DNA of 64,000 nucleotides from Promethearchaeota archaeon (GTDB taxonomy: Archaea; Asgardarchaeota; Lokiarchaeia; Sigyniarchaeales; SOKP01). Of the stretch, positions 41,104 through 49,471 are shown one piece after another. The translations under genes and the position numbers were made by a program. Positions within the stretch are counted from its first letter, which is position 1; each line of letters opens with the position of its first letter. The stretch spans positions 1 to 64,000 of the forward strand of contig JAHPZJ010000010.1 of assembly GCA_019058245.1 (NCBI GenBank), given 5' to 3'. The notes below the pieces were generated by a model. It searched no databases. It had not been told where the DNA came from and saw nothing but the letters and a program-made list of their open reading frames with translations.

Positions 41104-42726
41104 ATGGTTGGTAAAAACGATATTGCGGTTTCCGAAATGATGGAAAAAATTAGAGGATCCCTTATCCTCCCTGAGAGAGCATATTTTTTTGATACAACGC
41201 TCCGTGATGGGGAACAAACTCCAGGTATAAGTTTCACTCATAAAGAAAAGCTATCTATTGCTCAAGCTCTTAATGAGTTGGGAATTGATATCATAGAAGC
41301 GGGATTTCCTATTACATCTCAGGGAGATTTTGAAGCTTGTAGAGATATTGCGAAAATGGGTTTAGATTCTGAAGTGATGGGTTTAGCTAGAACAGCAAAG
41401 CCTGATATAGATAAAGTTATAGAGGCAGATATGGATAGTATACACCTATTTTGTGCCACTTCAGAATTGCATATGAGAGAAAAACTTCAATTAACTAGAG
41501 ATGAAGTCATAGAAAGAATAAGAGAAACCGTCTCATACGCTAAAGAACATTATTCTATTGTACTATTTTCAGCTGAGGATGCAACTAGATCAGATTTAGA
41601 TTTTTTAATTAAAGCTAACTTAACTGCTGTTGAGAGTGGGGCTACACGAATAAATATACCTGATACTGTAGGTACTATTTCTCCAGTAGCTTTTGGATAT
41701 ATTATACGGAAAAATTATGACGCCTTACCTAAAAATATTCGTATTGCGGCTCATTGTCATAATGATTTTGGTCTTGCTGTAGCAAATACTATTGCTGGGT
41801 TTGAAAATGGTGTTTCAGAAGCTCAAACAACAATTTTAGGCTTGGGTGAACGAGCAGGAAATGCATCTTTTGAAGAAACTTGTATGTCTCTTTATGCTCT
41901 ATATCAAATACCTATGAATATTAAAACAACAAAGATTTTTCCTACAGCTAAATTAGTAGAAAGTTTTTGTGGTGGGAAAGTCAGAATTGGTCGATTACAA
42001 CCCCTTATAGGGCAGAATGCATTTGCTCACGAAGCAGGTATTCACGCACACGCGATGCTACAACATGCGCGAACATATGAACCCATTACACCAGAATTAA
42101 TAGGAATTCACCGTACCGATGATGTGGAAGCAATTATAAAGCAATCAATAAAACTTGGAAAACACACAGGTGGTCATGCTCTTAAGGCTAAAATTAATGA
42201 CTTAGGTATTAGCCCTACTGATGAACAATTTACGAAAATAAGGCAACATGTAAAAAGTCTTGGTGATAAGGGGCATGAAGTTTCTGAAGAGGATTTTTTA
42301 GCAATTGTTAAAGATGTCATGGGGGAAATACCAAAAGAAGAACAATATGTTACTCTTGAAGAGTTAACTGTTTTGACTGGATCAGTTACACCTACATCAA
42401 CAGTTCGATTAAACATCAAAAATAATGGAGATATATTGCAAAAAGTAGCATCAGCAACGGGAGTAGGGCCTGTAGATGCCTCATGTAATGCAATTGTTAA
42501 ATGCTTTAAACCGATGAGTAAGATTGTACTTTTAAATTTTCAAATTGATGCTATTACTGGTGGAACTGAAGCATTAGGTCATGTTACCCTTGAAATCATG
42601 GATGTTGATAGTAATATAGTAGTCAAAGCTAGTGCGATTCATGAAGATATTGTTATGTGCTCTGTTCTATCTTTGATAAAAGGATTAAATCTAATTGTCA
42701 AGAAAAAGAGCATAACCTTAAATTAA
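41104..42726 (+). CDS. leuA: 2-isopropylmalate synthase
   Basis: DTTLRDGEQ, IEAGFP, PDTVG, HCHND, GLGERAGN, C-terminal regulatory domain GVGPVDA; operon context. Confidence 0.88.
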   Translation: MVGKNDIAVSEMMEKIRGSLILPERAYFFDTTLRDGEQTPGISFTHKEKLSIAQALNELGIDIIEAGFPITSQGDFEACRDIAKMGLDSEVMGLARTAKPDIDKVIEADMDSIHLFCATSELHMREKLQLTRDEVIERIRETVSYAKEHYSIVLFSAEDATRSDLDFLIKANLTAVESGATRINIPDTVGTISPVAFGYIIRKNYDALPKNIRIAAHCHNDFGLAVANTIAGFENGVSEAQTTILGLGERAGNASFEETCMSLYALYQIPMNIKTTKIFPTAKLVESFCGGKVRIGRLQPLIGQNAFAHEAGIHAHAMLQHARTYEPITPELIGIHRTDDVEAIIKQSIKLGKHTGGHALKAKINDLGISPTDEQFTKIRQHVKSLGDKGHEVSEEDFLAIVKDVMGEIPKEEQYVTLEELTVLTGSVTPTSTVRLNIKNNGDILQKVASATGVGPVDASCNAIVKCFKPMSKIVLLNFQIDAITGGTEALGHVTLEIMDVDSNIVVKASAIHEDIVMCSVLSLIKGLNLIVKKKSITLN

Positions 42727-42760
42727 TTAAATTCAATAAAAAACACGAATTTTAGGAATT

Positions 42761-44032
42761 ATGGATTTAACAATTAGTGAAAAAATCATAAGAGATCATT
42801 GTGAGCAAAAGGATCTTTCTGCTGGAGATTTTGTTTTAGTAAAAATTGATAAATGTTTAGGTAATGATATAACTGCACCAAAAGCTATAGAAGTTTTCGA
42901 AGAAATTGTTGAGGGAACTGAAAGAAGTGTTTTTGATCCAAGTAAGATAATACTTACACCAGATCATTTTACACCAAATAAGGATATTGCTTCGGCAATA
43001 CAGTGCAAAATTTTAAAAGATTTTGCAAGGAAGTACCACATTCAACACTATTATGAAGTAGGAAAAGTAGGAATTGAACATTGTCTTCTTCCCGAACAAG
43101 GATTAATTGCTCCGAGTGAGTTAATTATCGGTGCTGATTCTCATACTTGTACATATGGGGCATTAGGTGCTTTTTCTACTGGTGTTGGCTCAACTGATCT
43201 AGGTGTGGCAATGGCTCTTGGAGAATGTTGGCTTCAAGTACCTGAAACCTTGAGATTCAAATATACAGGTCAGTTAAATAAATGGGTTTCAGGTAAAGAT
43301 TTAATCTTGTATACTATTGGTAAAATTGGAGTTGATGGGGCAACATATAAGGTTATGGAATTTACAGGTGAAATTATCAACAACCTTTCTATGGCAAACC
43401 GTTTTACTATGTGTAATATGGCTATAGAAGCAGGCGCAAAAACAGGGTTCATTTTTCCAGATAAGATTACTGAACAATATCTAAAAAGTGTAGGAATTTC
43501 TAAATTTAAAACCTATGAGAATAATAATACAAAATATCATGAAAGTATTGAGATTGATTGTAATACTATTGAACCTCAAATAGCTCTTCCACATTTACCA
43601 AGCAATACAAAACCAATATCTGAAGTACAGGATATGCATATTGAAATTGATCAAGCTGTAATTGGATCTTGTACCAATGGACGAATAGAAGATTTACGGA
43701 TAGCAGCAAAAATAATGAAAGACAACAAGATTCACCCTAGTGTAAGATGTATTATCATTCCAGGAACTCCTACCATTCAATTTGATGCTCTTAAAGAAGG
43801 ATTAATTGAAATTTTTCTTAAAGCTGGAGCGATTGTATCTCCACCCACATGCGGTCCATGTTTAGGAGGTCATATGGGAATCCTTGCTCCTGGTGAAAGA
43901 GCAATTTCAACAACAAATAGAAATTTTATGGGAAGGATGGGACATAAAGATAGTGAAGTCTATTTATCAAATCCAGCGATTGCAGCAACTTCTGCCTTAA
44001 AAGGTTTTATTGCATCTCCAGAAAGTATGTAA
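42761..44032 (+). CDS. leuC: 3-isopropylmalate dehydratase large subunit
   Basis: DH, GADSHTCT.GA, IGSCTNGR, CGPCLG, STTNRNF.GRMG. Confidence 0.92.
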   Translation: MDLTISEKIIRDHCEQKDLSAGDFVLVKIDKCLGNDITAPKAIEVFEEIVEGTERSVFDPSKIILTPDHFTPNKDIASAIQCKILKDFARKYHIQHYYEVGKVGIEHCLLPEQGLIAPSELIIGADSHTCTYGALGAFSTGVGSTDLGVAMALGECWLQVPETLRFKYTGQLNKWVSGKDLILYTIGKIGVDGATYKVMEFTGEIINNLSMANRFTMCNMAIEAGAKTGFIFPDKITEQYLKSVGISKFKTYENNNTKYHESIEIDCNTIEPQIALPHLPSNTKPISEVQDMHIEIDQAVIGSCTNGRIEDLRIAAKIMKDNKIHPSVRCIIIPGTPTIQFDALKEGLIEIFLKAGAIVSPPTCGPCLGGHMGILAPGERAISTTNRNFMGRMGHKDSEVYLSNPAIAATSALKGFIASPESM

Positions 44033-44050
44033 AAGAATATAATTTAGAAG

Positions 44051-44569
44051 GTGAAAAAAATGAAAGGTAAAGTAATTAAATATCCTCAAGAGAATATTAA
44101 TACTGATTTGATAATTCCTGCTCGATACTTAGTAGATATAAATCCTCAATTTTTAGCGGAGCACTGTATGGAAGATTTAGATATGGAATTTCATAAGAAT
44201 AAAAATAATCTTCAAGCAACAATTCTCGTCTCAGGTTCTAATTTCGGTTGCGGATCAAGCCGAGAACAAGCACCAATAGCCTTGAAAGCTACGGGAATAG
44301 AATTAATAATCGCTCCCAGTTTTGCACGTATATTTTTCAGAAATGCTATTAATATTGGTCTTCCAATTCTTCAATTTTCTGATATTGATGCTTTTAATAG
44401 TGGAGATCTGCTAGATATTGATTTTGGAAAAGGAGTTATAGAAAATATAACTACTAGTAAATCATATTCTTTTAGCAAATTTCCAGCTTTTTTACAGAAA
44501 ATAATTAAAGTTCACGGCTTAATAAATTTTGCAAGAGAACAAATTGCTAATTCAGAAGAGGGATCATAA
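44051..44569 (+). CDS. leuD: 3-isopropylmalate dehydratase small subunit
   Basis: NINTD.IIPARYL, NFGCGSSREQA, SFARIFFRN. Confidence 0.92.
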   Translation: MKKMKGKVIKYPQENINTDLIIPARYLVDINPQFLAEHCMEDLDMEFHKNKNNLQATILVSGSNFGCGSSREQAPIALKATGIELIIAPSFARIFFRNAINIGLPILQFSDIDAFNSGDLLDIDFGKGVIENITTSKSYSFSKFPAFLQKIIKVHGLINFAREQIANSEEGS

Positions 44570-45633
44570 TGAAAAAAATAATTGCAGTCACTCATGGTGA
44601 TGGATGTGGATTAGAAGTAGTAGAAGAAGGGATAAAGATTCTAAAAGCTATTTCTGAATATAGTGATTTTGATTTTGAATTTATAAACGCTCCAGCTGGA
44701 GGTAAAGTTTGGAAAGATTGTGGTGAAAGTCTTCCAGAGAAAACATTTGAAATTATTAAGAATTCTGATGCTTTATTATTTGGTGCTATTGGGCTTCCTG
44801 ATTTACCCCCTGGAATTGCTGAAACTGCAATCTTAAAGATAAGACAAGATTTAGATCTATACGTGAATATGAGGCCAATTAAGTTATATAATCCTCTACG
44901 TGATAGATGCCCACTTAGAGATGAATTTATAGGAAAAGGTATTGATTTCACTATTATTAGAGAAAATACAGAGGGAATATATAAAGGAATAGGAGAAATA
45001 TCAGATGAGAGGGCTGAAAGTGTGATGCTTTATACTAAAAAAGGGTGTGAAAGAATTATGCGATATGCTTGTGAATTTGCAAAAAAGAATGGTCATAAAA
45101 AAATTACATCTGTAGATAAAGCAAATGTTATAAAAGCAAGTCAATTTTGGCGCAATATCTTTCATAAAATTGGGGAAGATTATCCCGATTTAGAGAAAGA
45201 GGATGTCTATATTGATGCTTTTTGTCAATGGTTAATTCGTGCTCCTTATTCTTACGAAACAGTAGTTACAGGCAATATGTTTGGTGATATTACTAGTGAT
45301 GAAGGTGCTTTTCTGATTGGTAGTTTAGGAATGGCCGCCAGTGGAAACATAAATCCAGGAAATGTTTCAATGTATGAACCAATACATGGTTCGGCTCCTG
45401 ATATTGCTGGAAAAAATATAGCTAATCCAATAGGTACTATTTTAAGTATAAAATTGATGATGCAGGAATCGTTTAATTCGCCAGAAATAGGATTTTTAAT
45501 TGAAAAATCTGTAGAAGAAGCCCTTAACGAAGGAAGAACCATAGATATTGAGAATAAAGCTTTTAAGACTCTAACTACGAGAGAAATGGGGGATCTAATA
45601 GTAAAAAAGTTGATAAACTTGCTTAAAAAGTAG
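44569..45633 (+). CDS. leuB: 3-isopropylmalate dehydrogenase
   Basis: GDG.G.EV, RENTEG.Y, DKANV, NMFGDI.SD, EPIHGSAPDIAGK.IANP. Confidence 0.92.
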   Translation: MKKIIAVTHGDGCGLEVVEEGIKILKAISEYSDFDFEFINAPAGGKVWKDCGESLPEKTFEIIKNSDALLFGAIGLPDLPPGIAETAILKIRQDLDLYVNMRPIKLYNPLRDRCPLRDEFIGKGIDFTIIRENTEGIYKGIGEISDERAESVMLYTKKGCERIMRYACEFAKKNGHKKITSVDKANVIKASQFWRNIFHKIGEDYPDLEKEDVYIDAFCQWLIRAPYSYETVVTGNMFGDITSDEGAFLIGSLGMAASGNINPGNVSMYEPIHGSAPDIAGKNIANPIGTILSIKLMMQESFNSPEIGFLIEKSVEEALNEGRTIDIENKAFKTLTTREMGDLIVKKLINLLKK

Positions 45634-45660: not shown

Positions 45661-46083
45661 CTAAGAATTATTATTATTTTTATCTAACAACTCATTTTTA
45701 AATTTCTTAATTTCCTTAGCTAAATTTGAGTTCAAACCGGGGTGATCTTCTACGGGAAGATCAATTCCCATTATTGGTGCTAAGATCTCTCCTTTCTCGT
45801 TAATTACATCATAATCTTTTAAAATTTTTTTTTTTGTTTCTATTTTTTCATCATTAGATATCCAAAGCATCCCTTTAGGACAATTAATTAAGATCTTTGT
45901 GACTAAATGTATTTGTTTCATACAATTTGGACATTCATAATAGTATTTATCATCAAGAAATTTTTGAATTAACTCTGGATTTAACCACGTATTAATTGAT
46001 GCTTCCCAGATAACCCGAAACGAGTATTTACAGTGAGGACAAATTATTTCAGTACTAGTTAAATGTGTCATAATTCTTTTCAA
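45661..46083 (-). CDS. CpXC-domain zinc-ribbon protein
   Basis: CPHC...W.ASIN....PEL...L.....CPNC. Confidence 0.75.
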   Translation of the reverse strand: MKRIMTHLTSTEIICPHCKYSFRVIWEASINTWLNPELIQKFLDDKYYYECPNCMKQIHLVTKILINCPKGMLWISNDEKIETKKKILKDYDVINEKGEILAPIMGIDLPVEDHPGLNSNLAKEIKKFKNELLDKNNNNS

Positions 46084-46152
46084 TCTATTTAAAGAATTTA
46101 TATGTTAATTAAATTCCATCTTTTTTTTGTTGTTTATGATCCATAACATGAG

Positions 46153-46181
46153 TGTCACCATATTGTGACAATATTTAAATA
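46153..46181 (+). promoter_or_regulatory. TGTCAC-N6-GTGACA palindrome adjoining the TATA box of the actin operon
   Basis: Perfect 6-bp inverted repeat at 46153-46170; TTTAAATA at 46174-46181. Confidence 0.65.
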
Positions 46182-46236
46182 TTATCGTTTTTATTTTAAC
46201 TATAAATTAATATTAAAAAAAAGAGGTGGTTTTAAA

Positions 46237-47382
46237 ATTTCAGTCAACGGGGATTTTAAAAATAATAGACCCATTGTTATAGATAATGGGACTGGTATAT
46301 CAAAAAATGGATTTGGAGGAGAAGATCAGCCACGCTCGGTTTTTCCAACTGTCATTGGTAAACCAAAGTATGGAAACATCATGCCTGATGTAAAGAATTA
46401 CAGCCGAGAATGGTATGTTGGGGAAGAAGCAATGGAATTAAAAGGGATCATGAATCTACAATTTCCTATTGAACATGGAGTTGTTGAAGATTGGCCAGCA
46501 ATGGAAAGGATATACCATTATACATTCTATACAGATTTAAGAATAGATCCTTCAGAATTTCCTGTATTGTTAACAGAAGCTCCATTGAATCCTAGATCAA
46601 ATAGAGAAAAAATGGCAGAAATAATGTTCGAAACATTCAATGTTCCTGCTCTTTATATCGCAACACAAGCAGTTTTATCACTATACGCTTCTGGTCGAAC
46701 TACTGGGTGTGTAGTAGATATAGGGGATGGAGTTGCACATATTGTGCCAATTTTTGAGGGTTTTGCTCTAAGTCATGCGATACAGAGAATAGATCTAGCG
46801 GGAAGAGATGTTACAACATATTTACAGAGATTATTACGTCAAAATGGATATTCATTTTATACATCAGCAGAGAAACAGATTGTTAGAGATATTAAGGAAA
46901 AATTATGCTATGTTGCTCTTGATCCTGAAAAAGAGATTATGCTCTCAAATAAAGTATCAGGGATGGCAAAAAATTATATGCTTCCAGATGGAGAGACTAT
47001 TACAATTGGACTTGAAAGATTCCTAGCTCCAGAAAGTCTATTCAATCCTTCTGTAGTAGGAAAGGAATTGCCTCCTTTAGATGAAGTAATCGTTGGTGCG
47101 ATTTCTGATTGTGATGTTGATCTTCGAAGAGATTTATATAGTAATATTGTACTCTCAGGTGGTTCCACCATGTTTCCGGGTATTAAAGAGAGATTAACTA
47201 GAGAGTTAAAAGAACAACTTCCTGAATCCATTGATGTAAAGATTATAGCACCGCCAGAAAGAATGTATTCTGTATGGATTGGTGGATCTATTTTGAGTTC
47301 CTTAAAGACTTTTAGTAGAATGTGGGTAAGTCGAAGAGATTACAAGGAAATGGGACCTCAAGTTATCCATCGATGTTTTTAA
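46237..47382 (+). CDS. Asgard actin (eukaryote-like actin family); probable ATT start
   Basis: [97 protein letters not shown] end; GAGGTG SD 8 nt before ATT; ORF-track GTG 46165 lies upstream of the TATA box. Confidence 0.95.
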
Positions 47383-47616
47383 ATGGCTTTATTTAAAATA
47401 AATTATAAAGTGACAATAATTGTGAGAATTAAAATAATTGATGGAATAGCTTGTATTGAACTAGATGATGGAATAATTTTATCTACAAAGGATTTAAAAA
47501 GTGAATTCAAGAAATTGATTATGCCAGACAATTTCACTGATATTCAGGAATCTAAAGAAAGCAAATATTATAATAAGGTTTTGGAAGAAATTAAAAAGAA
47601 ATTTGGAGAAAAATAA
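47383..47616 (+). CDS. small hypothetical protein in actin operon
   Basis: 77-aa ORF abutting the actin stop; start uncertain. Confidence 0.55.
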   Translation: MALFKINYKVTIIVRIKIIDGIACIELDDGIILSTKDLKSEFKKLIMPDNFTDIQESKESKYYNKVLEEIKKKFGEK

Positions 47617-47673
47617 ATAATTATAATTTTTTTTTATTAAAATAAAGATTAGTCAAGGAGAGGATTCAATAAT

Positions 47674-48912
47674 ATGGAAAAAATGACACAAGCTCTAAAT
47701 GAATTAATAAAGTCAGAATCAAAGACTATTGCTGCCACAATCATTAAAGGTGAAAATGATATTGAGTATTCAACAGAGAATTGGGATATTAGCAATGATA
47801 TTGATGAGATTAATTTAGCTTGGGAATCAGAAGAATATAAAACACTTATTATTTCTAATATTAAATATGTAATTATCCAGCGTACTCCTGAAAGACTTGT
47901 TGGAATTGATCCTTCTAATAAAGGAGGAATTTTAGGCTTTAAAGATGAAGAGAGAAAAGTAATATGTAAGATTGCTCCTGATGGATTAAAGCGATTAGGG
48001 ATGATGGAAGTTTCTCGTATTTTAGGTAAGCTCAGTTCAAAAAAACCATATATTGATTTCGATACCCAATTAGGTAAAGTAGAAGAATTGAAATGGGCAA
48101 CTCCAAGAATTCTTCTTGATGATACAAATAATTTGCAGGAACTAGGATTACTAAAATTTGGATTAAGTATTGAAGAAGCTAAAGTATATTTGACATTGTT
48201 AAAGAGAGGTAAAGAGGGAGCAAAAGTTGGTGAATTAAATGAAGATCTCTCCATTAAAAGAACAACGATCTATCGTATAATTGATCGTTTAATCAGTAAG
48301 AGTTGGGTTATAAAATTACCATTGATGCCCAAAAGTGCGCAAAATTTTATAGCAAGACCCCTAAACGATATTCTCGATGAGAGAATTCAGAAAAAGGAAG
48401 AAGAATTAAAGATTCTAAAGAGTTTTCGCTATATCATGGGTGAGATACTAGAGAATGGATGGATAGATATCTCAGAAATTAAAAAAGATTTTCAATTATA
48501 TAGTAAAAAGGCTTTTGATTTTAACACTCTTGGAATTATGGGGGAGGAAAAGGATTGTGGTCTTATAATCTTTGAATACAATAAAAAAATAAAAGAAGAA
48601 GTAATAATTAAAGCGGCCCTACAACTATCATCCGAAAAAATGAGAGAACCAATACAACCCGATCTTGATAAAAAAAAATTTACAATCCCCGATCTTGAAG
48701 ATATAAAAATAGAAGATACCAAAATTCAAGATTATTTTGGCATGACAATGTATTTCAAATTTAAAGAAGGAACTGAAACGGGAAATAATGTTGGGTTGGG
48801 TTGGATAGTAGCAGCTAGGCATGTAGCTGTTCCTATTAAGAATAAGATCTATGTTGTTTGGGGATCCGAAGAACAATTTCCAATTTTATTAAGTATTATT
48901 TTAAAATTATAA
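47674..48912 (+). CDS. profilin-like domain fused to TrmB-type HTH and an unknown C-terminal domain
   Basis: N-terminal ~125 aa with Loki-profilin pattern (A.II....I.YSTENWDIS.DI...I.NIKY.IIQ.T.ERL.G....G.I.G); residues ~160-230 FGLS.EEAKVYL.LL......GEL...L.I.RTTIY.II.RL..K.WV. Confidence 0.75.
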   Translation: MEKMTQALNELIKSESKTIAATIIKGENDIEYSTENWDISNDIDEINLAWESEEYKTLIISNIKYVIIQRTPERLVGIDPSNKGGILGFKDEERKVICKIAPDGLKRLGMMEVSRILGKLSSKKPYIDFDTQLGKVEELKWATPRILLDDTNNLQELGLLKFGLSIEEAKVYLTLLKRGKEGAKVGELNEDLSIKRTTIYRIIDRLISKSWVIKLPLMPKSAQNFIARPLNDILDERIQKKEEELKILKSFRYIMGEILENGWIDISEIKKDFQLYSKKAFDFNTLGIMGEEKDCGLIIFEYNKKIKEEVIIKAALQLSSEKMREPIQPDLDKKKFTIPDLEDIKIEDTKIQDYFGMTMYFKFKEGTETGNNVGLGWIVAARHVAVPIKNKIYVVWGSEEQFPILLSIILKL

Positions 48913-48922
48913 GATTTTTACA

Positions 48923-49471
48923 ATGACAGCACAAATTCCAGATGAGTTTATTTTGAATGGTGAATCTTTTTCGTTGGTAGGATTAAAGGGTAAAGGGTTA
49001 GTAGAACCTGAGGATTTAGGGATATCACCATATTCCAGTTGCACTGCTTGTTGGCGAGGGTATGTTATGAAATATAATTTTACGAAAAACAAATTAATCC
49101 TTGATGAATTACAGGTTAATGTTGATGATCCTCCAAAAATCAATGGTGTTGAAGCTCAGCAAGAGAGTTCTTTATTTAAATATCATTATAAGAATTTGAA
49201 GCTTCAAACAAACTTTACTGGGAGTATTCTTCTTGCAAAAGACTTTATACAATCTATGTATGTCCATATGGGATTTCAGAGACCCATGGCTTTTAAGACA
49301 GTTGTTGAAATAGATATAAAGAATGGAGAAATCATCTCATTAAAAGATCTGTCTAAAAAGATGGAAAATTTAAGGAAAAAAGATCTATATAAAGGAGCAC
49401 AACCTCAATCTGACTCAAAGAGAGACATTGAAGAATGGGTTAAGCAAACCTTTTCCCTTGATTATGATTGA
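48923..49471 (+). CDS. conserved-looking hypothetical protein
   Basis: MTAQIPD, S.CTACWRGY, FTG..L motifs. Confidence 0.75.
   Translation: MTAQIPDEFILNGESFSLVGLKGKGLVEPEDLGISPYSSCTACWRGYVMKYNFTKNKLILDELQVNVDDPPKINGVEAQQESSLFKYHYKNLKLQTNFTGSILLAKDFIQSMYVHMGFQRPMAFKTVVEIDIKNGEIISLKDLSKKMENLRKKDLYKGAQPQSDSKRDIEEWVKQTFSLDYD

Follow-up and report, generated by a model that had tools for sequence, protein, structure and literature searches.

How the transcription of an actin gene might be regulated in an Asgard archaeon is the question raised by a short gene cassette in the window (the whole stretch of 64,000 nucleotides of Lokiarchaeial DNA that was analysed). The known control of Asgard actin is exerted on the protein, by profilins and gelsolins (PMC9834061, PMC8410842), and how expression of the cytoskeletal genes is controlled appears to be unstudied so far. 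A preliminary description of the locus had reported an actin gene, a 77-aa ORF and a 412-aa ORF on the same strand, and all three were located in the window as described. It had further proposed that the 412-aa protein is a fusion of a profilin with a TrmB-type transcription factor, which would sense monomeric actin and feed back on actin transcription in a manner analogous to MRTF-SRF control. The features of the cassette are as follows.

46131..46148, no strand: weak distal site resembling the operator, TGTT-N10-AACA; it precedes the main site by 22 bp, or two helical turns
46153..46170, no strand: main operator, the perfect palindrome TGTCAC-N6-GTGACA (core of the family, TGTC-N10-GACA), which reaches into the BRE position with its right half-site
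46174..46181, + strand: archaeal TATA box TTTAAATA serving the actin gene, separated from the operator by 3 nt
46223..46239, + strand: GAGGTGG ribosome-binding site and ATT start codon of the cassette actin (from sequence and orthologue comparison)
46237..47382, + strand: Lokiactin-type accessory actin, 381 aa, ATT start (PF00022, E 9.9e-129)
47383..47616, + strand: small ORF of 77 aa, an optional cassette gene without a match in the Pfam scan
47627..47635, + strand: oligo-T tract ahead of the regulator gene; a run of at least 5 T recurs across loci
47674..48912, + strand: regulator of 412 aa, a fusion of profilin, TrmB winged helix and C-terminal domain (from homologue clusters, alignment and AlphaFold model)
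47674..48036, + strand: profilin domain, aa 1-121, in which the Loki-loop insertion is missing (from sequence, fold and predicted complex)
48127..48438, + strand: winged helix of TrmB type spanning aa 152-229, with KRTTIYRI as its recognition helix, followed by a long helix at aa 230-255 (PF01978)
48523..48909, + strand: C-terminal alpha/beta domain, aa 284-412, also present in profilin-less relatives
48923..49471, + strand: ORF of 182 aa, 11 nt downstream of the fusion, without a Pfam match

The cassette actin and its link to the regulator gene

The ATT start of the actin is unusual, and its assignment is supported by the GAGGTGG just before it and by orthologues in which this position is occupied by ATG or TTG; in the orthologue comparison ATT was found there in 34 loci, TTG in 8 and ATG in 8. 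The 77-aa ORF, whose true start may lie about 9-14 codons further in, was seen in 36 loci and has a dN/dS of mostly about 0.2, and the gaps of 45-85 nt that were found elsewhere are too short for it. The 182-aa ORF is a frequent but optional neighbour, present in 34 loci. In 53 of 68 loci, the 62 nt preceding the fusion match contain a run of at least 5 T, a count made without a chance control. The tract in the window is probably a partial terminator, and its position before the regulator gene suggests that the regulator is made by partial read-through; we infer that the actin, the 77-aa ORF and the regulator form one transcript. In the window the cassette adjoins a leucine operon, and cassettes elsewhere sit in contigs of up to 1.28 Mb.

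This genome possesses five actin-family genes, among them a housekeeping Lokiactin on another contig (C6:157849-158994) that shares 84% identity with the cassette actin. Across the genus the housekeeping protein is 99-100% identical at a nucleotide identity of 80-91%, a near-invariant behaviour as described for Lokiactin (PMC9834061). The cassette actin, which is patchily distributed and occurs in the fusion-bearing genomes, evolves faster and is 87-99% identical across the genus, with a dN/dS of about 0.04-0.06. Its ATP-binding motifs are retained, the DNGTG, DIGDG and SGGSTM columns being invariant or nearly so. The fixed differences between cassette actin and Lokiactin cluster at residues 30-47, which correspond to the subdomain-2 D-loop, and the 26 predicted profilin-contact positions show one conservative change (D for E) between the two. 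In an actin tree, built by a quick method with long-branch outgroups, the housekeeping Lokiactins were grouped with 100% support, and the monophyly of the cassette actins was left unsettled. By these sequence criteria the cassette actin is an accessory Lokiactin paralogue in which the D-loop is altered and the profilin face is not. An identity with housekeeping Lokiactin is ruled out by the separate, near-invariant copy on C6, the promoter of which is without the operator. The earlier view of actin as the regulated gene thus holds in so far as an actin is tied to the regulator, but this gene is the accessory paralogue and not the housekeeping Lokiactin.

The link between fusion and actin is tight. 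Of the loci in which both the profilin and the winged helix are present and the upstream sequence extends over 700 nt or more, 90 of 90 have a co-oriented actin gene immediately before the fusion; these loci include near-duplicates, are not independent and are all kin from one family. This arrangement is maintained down to 35% identity of the fusion, and all other neighbours vary. Among the 130 fusion loci fetched, actin was detected in 97, and the next commonest neighbours in 34-36. One exception is L078, where an intact-looking fusion adjoins a divergent oxidoreductase-like gene and neither actin nor operator is present in the only about 640 nt available upstream. Of the 135 genomes of the Lokiarchaeia family to which the window belongs, 44, distributed over four genera, were found to encode the full regulator; among 26 genomes from other families of Lokiarchaeia, the number was 0. 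The linkage that had been claimed between fusion and actin therefore extends across one family of Lokiarchaeia, the only one in which the system was found, and not across Asgard.

Domains of the regulator and the predicted actin contact

A comparison of residues 2-121 of the regulator with the sequences of solved structures (phmmer) retrieved Asgard profilins only, namely, 5zzb (E 2.2e-7), 5yed (2.3e-7), 5zza (6.6e-5) and 7pbh (6e-4). The fold agrees with this assignment: the AlphaFold model matched the Odin profilin 5zza in Foldseek with an E of 2.1e-9, a TM score of 0.86 and an rmsd of 1.9 A over 119 columns, and the top 30 matches were all profilins or a profilin-like protein. The first roadblock protein appeared at rank 49. 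By these fold matches a roadblock, longin or GAF identity is ruled out, and the initial identification of an Asgard-type profilin is upheld by both sequence and fold. In the Pfam scan this domain does not reach the profilin family PF00235; its relative L268 does.

The profilin domain is the fastest-evolving part of the fusion (dN/dS about 0.14-0.23) and the least conserved, with a mean top residue frequency of 0.57 as compared to 0.71-0.76 for the other parts. It shares 44% identity with the 207-aa protein L260, as compared to 27% with the stand-alone profilin of the same genome. The same profilin subfamily was also found fused to LCM-type methyltransferases and to helical tails, and may be a portable module. 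Of the ligands that had been considered besides actin, polyproline is unlikely, given that the profilins of Loki and Odin fail to bind it (PMC8410842). As to the lysines K60 and K71 of the proposed basic PIP2 patch of Loki profilin, a hand count on the alignment, for which a 2-residue tag offset was assumed, suggests that K71 is kept as K64 and that K60 is replaced by E53, a position that is variable across the fusion family.

The presence of a TrmB-type winged helix was confirmed by PF01978, which covers aa 159-215 with an E of 8.4e-11 and 42 bits as compared to the Pfam cut-off of 25.6; the model also matched TrmBL2 (5bpd) in Foldseek with an E of 5.7e-4. Residues K195, R196, Y200, L206 and W211 are invariant among 69 sequences, and the long helix of aa 230-255 is likely a dimerisation coil. 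The C-terminal domain, modelled alone, folds confidently with a pLDDT of 81. It has no Pfam match up to E 1, no match among PDB sequences or ESM Atlas features, and no Foldseek match under E 0.001; the best Z, 5.5 to Mog1/PsbP-like proteins, lies within background. The TrmB effector domain PF11495 is absent from the Pfam, sequence and fold matches of this region. The regulator is TrmB-like in its working, but it is no sugar-sensing TrmB. The fusion family comprises 159 homologous clusters, the best 120 of which are mostly full length and share 45-97% identity, and dN/dS values indicate purifying selection on every domain. These fusion proteins have long been present in databases under generic names.

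The complex of the cassette actin with residues 1-128 of the regulator was predicted with a score of 0.71, and the highest score among three controls was 0.00; of the reference pairs, 58 of 80 solved ones and 2 of 110 mismatched ones reached the mark applied to this score. Between runs, at least 92% of the contacts agree, and the pLDDT of the partners is at least 81. The predicted contacts on actin involve residues 111, 164-171, 284-287 and 349-372, which we take to be the barbed-end cleft used by profilins. The complex prediction that had been proposed as a check thus placed the domain on the canonical profilin face, but similar complexes have been solved (5YEE, 5ZZB and 5ZZA), so that the pass may reflect memory of these and shows likeness rather than binding. 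The predicted interface is not significantly more conserved than the rest of the profilin domain (p 0.37) or of the actin (p 0.13). The divergence of the actin correlates with that of the profilin domain with a Spearman coefficient of 0.56, as compared to 0.32 for the C-terminal domain and 0.16 for the winged helix, the pairs not being independent; such co-divergence fits a partnership but also a simple linkage. Overall, the profilin domain probably binds actin.

The operator and its candidate binder

The palindrome at 46153..46170 pointed out in the preliminary description is real and perfect, and its exact 18-mer occurs once in the 3.09-Mb assembly, which is 76% complete. In a sample of 61 genomes, the exact palindrome is present in 11 of the 11 that bear the fusion and in 1 of the 50 others; in this sole fusion-less genome, G034, the copy stands before an unrelated gene. 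The core TGTC-N10-GACA is exact in 56 of 65 aligned actin promoters, and 63 of the 65 are within one mismatch of it. Of 67 non-redundant regions upstream of actin, 63 contain a half-site together with a TATA box, although the distance to the start codon differs by about 150 nt. At the distal site, columns -41..-39 and -24..-23 are conserved in the 65 aligned promoters, and some loci, such as L087 and L127, have near-complete second sites. The core was found neither at ten other housekeeping Lokiactin promoters nor at that of this genome.

The genome contains a single site that matches the operator with one mismatch, and its geometry is different. A role of the palindrome as a general promoter element was rejected, as there is one exact copy and the bare 8-base core occurs 13 times genome-wide as compared to 6-13 times for control spacings. 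A search across genomes for the pattern of half-site and TATA was discarded as noisy, since 92 of 161 matched and the reversed controls often did so as well. A scan for sigma-70 promoters, a model inapplicable to archaea, gave results at chance.

Co-occurrence by itself does not identify the binder of this site, and further information comes from the profilin-less relatives of the regulator, which are of about 300 aa and consist mostly of the winged helix and the same C-terminal domain. An exact TGTC-N10-GACA precedes the relatives' own genes in 26 of 30 cases (mean 0.035 and maximum 1 in shuffles), and in 24 of 25 a conserved TATA box, TATTTAAA, precedes this core by about 11 nt, so that the core covers the expected start site. 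In the TrmB family, a site downstream of TATA is the geometry of a repressor (PMC4158304). The palindrome is hence linked to the regulator, as had been supposed, in that it tracks the cassette and agrees with the motif found before the genes of these relatives. Because the winged-helix family keeps its DNA core with or without actin nearby, the fusion is the likely binder of the actin operator, and very probably it contacts DNA at this site, as judged by motif conservation.

Readings of the cassette and known systems

The reading that we prefer, at a probability of about 55%, is that of a one-component regulator that would be tuned by monomeric actin and would probably act as a repressor by covering the BRE; its sensing and its sign are what we infer. 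The regulator would dimerise via its long helix and grip TGTCA-N8-TGACA with its two winged helices. The dimer would occupy the strong site touching the TATA box as well as the weak site two turns upstream and, once bound, would keep TFB off and repress the cassette. Repression is preferred on account of the overlap between the right half-site and the BRE. The BRE consensus has a purine and adenines at positions -6, -4 and -3, and these are supplied by the right half-site together with the invariant A that follows, next to a perfect TATA box. Regulators bound inside the promoter block TFB or TBP (PMC5937170). [quoted passage not shown] We consider a repressor somewhat more plausible than an activator.

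As for the input, the profilin head would take up monomeric actin at the barbed-end cleft, altering the grip of the dimer on the operator. Since the spare actin and Lokiactin have the same profilin face, the regulator would read the whole monomer pool and set the amount of D-loop-variant actin that is made. On logic alone, actin is marginally easier to picture as a co-repressor, providing negative feedback, than as an inducer. Of the actin-linked one-component regulator proposed in the preliminary description, the profilin and TrmB domains, the linkage and the operator stand, and the analogy to MRTF-SRF is retained as a proposal.

The alternative that survives best, unlikely if still credible, is that the signal, a small molecule or protein, enters via the C-terminal domain, as in TrmB, and that the profilin is only a chaperone or buffer for the spare actin, a binder of lipids or of another partner, or a passenger. 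The winged helix and the C-terminal domain already form a stand-alone family of autoregulators with the same DNA motif, in which the C-terminal domain works without profilin and sits where TrmB has its effector domain; the rapid evolution of the profilin domain, its promiscuous fusion in these genomes and the lack of special conservation at its predicted interface point in the same direction. The phylogeny argues otherwise: all 33 fusions and all 26 relatives fall on opposite sides of one branch (SH-aLRT 99, midpoint root), so that the two groups are split by the gain of the profilin, and the side tied to actin is that of the fusions. None of the relatives' loci was chosen for actin, and those near actin adjoin a cassette that already has a fusion. 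In addition L148, a copy that has lost the profilin domain, is also without actin, as a single case.

Much less probable is a tether similar to ParMRC or AlfAB, by which the fusion would clamp a DNA site to the barbed end of spare-actin filaments, autorepression being secondary. Actin-type partition loci have the order site, actin and DNA-binding adaptor, which is also that of the cassette. A predicted contact at the barbed-end face, a departure from Lokiactin mainly at the D-loop, which is a filament contact, and a patchy distribution would be in line with such a function, but the cassette has one strong and one weak site rather than an iteron array, is found in contigs of up to 1.28 Mb and here next to the leucine operon, obtained its DNA-binding part from ordinary autoregulators, and encodes a close Lokiactin paralogue that is not ParM-like. 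Equally improbable is a two-protein switch acting on its own cassette, with the spare actin mainly as the ATP-sensing partner of the regulator: the two genes are strictly paired, the fixed changes in the D-loop region could weaken polymerisation, and at G005, G105 and G130, where a 3' stub is all that is left of the regulator, there is no actin nearby and the operator is gone too, but with no other clear target site in the genome this circuit would govern little beyond itself, and the profilin face shared by both actins would not permit the spare actin to be read alone.

Returning to the preferred reading of a regulator tuned by monomeric actin, in the cassette a regulator can be named along with its target gene, an operator of 18 bp and a possible ligand. 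We see an even chance that this is the first case in a prokaryote of transcription being set by the state of the actin cytoskeleton, with a profilin-headed regulator that switches a second actin isoform, convergent with MRTF-SRF. If actin does alter the activity of the regulator, feedback from cytoskeleton to gene and the switching of actin isoforms would have arisen in a prokaryote independently of animals; having been found in one family only, the system would be a lineage invention and not evidence on the ancestor of eukaryotes. A search of the main texts of openly accessible papers, which included a term search of the 2020 Asgard domain survey (10.1101/2020.10.19.343400), gave no description of the fusion, the operator or the spare actin. 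The cassette is a conserved, apparently undescribed variant of one-component regulation, the component parts of which are known.

These parts can be compared with known systems. The stand-alone Asgard profilins used for comparison (Loki profilin-1, 5YED/5YEE; Loki profilin-2, 5ZZB; Odin, 5ZZA; Thor, 7PBH; Heimdall, 6YRR) inhibit actin polymerisation (PMC8410842). The profilin domain resembles those of Loki and Odin in fold (TM 0.80-0.86), shares 24-29% identity with the stand-alone profilins and is predicted to use the same barbed-end face of actin, but it is fused to a DNA-binding regulator, is without the Loki-loop, belongs to a distinct, extended subfamily and is tied to one actin paralogue. 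Similarly, the cassette actin has the nucleotide motifs and the profilin face of Lokiactin (PMC9834061) intact, but is a second, patchy copy with fixed D-loop changes and an operator of its own. The regulator has in common with TrmB, TrmBL1 and Tgr of the Thermococcales a winged helix, a long coiled helix, a C-terminal domain, a palindrome by the BRE/TATA and probable autoregulation, and the TrmBL1 motif TATCAC-N5-GTGATA resembles the cassette operator, with a spacer of 5 as compared to 6 here (PMC4158304). In contrast to these proteins, the fusion adds an N-terminal profilin, has no PF11495 match and would target an actin gene rather than sugar metabolism.

Actin-type partition loci such as ParMRC and AlfA-AlfB-parN (for the latter, bioRxiv 10.1101/190744) likewise combine a DNA site, an actin-like gene and a DNA-binding adaptor in one autoregulated unit. 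The cassette differs from these by its true Lokiactin paralogue, the profilin as linker, the one to two sites and its chromosomal setting. In animals, the G-actin/MRTF-SRF system couples a sensor of monomeric actin to actin transcription, and it relies on the RPEL repeats of MRTF, on nuclear shuttling and on a separate MADS-box factor. A Pfam scan of the cassette proteins revealed neither RPEL repeats nor a MADS-box domain. The likeness to this system is one of logic only, without homology, and in the fusion the sensor, a profilin, and the DNA binder are part of one chain.

Apparent exchange of the regulator gene and loss of its profilin domain

The following features flank the cassette of operator, spare actin, optional small ORF and fusion regulator in the window, and both were found at few related loci only:

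41104-45633, plus strand, leuA-leuC-leuD-leuB-like run
45661-46083, minus strand, divergent CpXC zinc-finger gene (PF14353)

At L128, L131, L071, L132, and L133, the actin is 88-94% identical to that of the window, whereas the regulator is just 43-46% identical, and L128 has the same flanking genes as the window. This suggests an in-place swap of the regulator gene at these loci. Another member of the regulator family (L148, 1622-2584) has lost its profilin domain, and no actin was identified within 1.6 kb upstream of it. Genome G122 carries two divergent cassettes (L233 and L234), with an operator or operator half-site at each. Cassettes up to 97% identical to that of the window were also found in records titled Odin-, Hod- or Hermodarchaeota (L042, L050, L059, L062, and L068), for which the depositor labels probably differ from the true taxonomy.

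Start codon and variants of the spare actin

The spare actin starts with ATT at no fewer than 34 loci (46237-46239 in the window), a start that will be missed by gene callers and that may reduce translation. The cassette actin of L084 (1673-2719), which adjoins a full fusion, is merely 60% identical and contains internal gaps; it is possibly decaying or strongly diverged. Additional copies close to the housekeeping Lokiactin are present at L229 (G018, contig C38) and L240-L241 (G070), and neither a fusion nor an operator was found beside them in the short stretch available at each. These copies represent either a separate duplication or bin contamination.

The profilin subfamily in other proteins

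In several Lokiarchaeia genomes, the profilin subfamily of the fusion is also joined to a SAM methyltransferase of the LCM type (PF04072, matched at E about 1e-31 in the two fusions tested). Subfamily members in other proteins are:

L261, 1656-2978, minus strand, profilin-LCM methyltransferase fusion
L262, 1523-2851, plus strand, profilin-LCM methyltransferase fusion
L263, 1471-2799, plus strand, profilin-LCM methyltransferase fusion
L264, 1650-2912, minus strand, profilin-LCM methyltransferase fusion
L265, 1443-2705, plus strand, profilin-LCM methyltransferase fusion
L260, 1423-2046 (C8, 138422-139045, in the window's own genome), extended profilin of 207 aa, profilin plus helical tail

The extended profilin is present in most members of the genus and is the nearest relative, in the window's own genome, of the fusion's profilin domain (44% over 115 aa), of which it is a candidate origin. 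LCM enzymes methylate carboxyl ends, and the C-terminus of actin is located on its profilin face.

Operator-like sites elsewhere

The sole one-mismatch copy of the operator in the window's own genome (C28, 193474-193491) is intergenic, between converging genes, with a weaker TATA-like run 6 nt after it, and is probably not a regulator target. In G156, many contig ends share a repeat of some 150 bp (L235-L238; 29 pattern matches), which includes an operator half-site and a TATA and may be the terminus of an insertion element. A record labelled Gammaproteobacteria (L091) encodes a distant TrmB-type regulator with an identical KRTTIYRI recognition helix, and an exact TGTC-N10-GACA lies ahead of its gene, upstream of 8001. 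Since helix and motif occur together at this locus, their pairing may extend outside Asgard.
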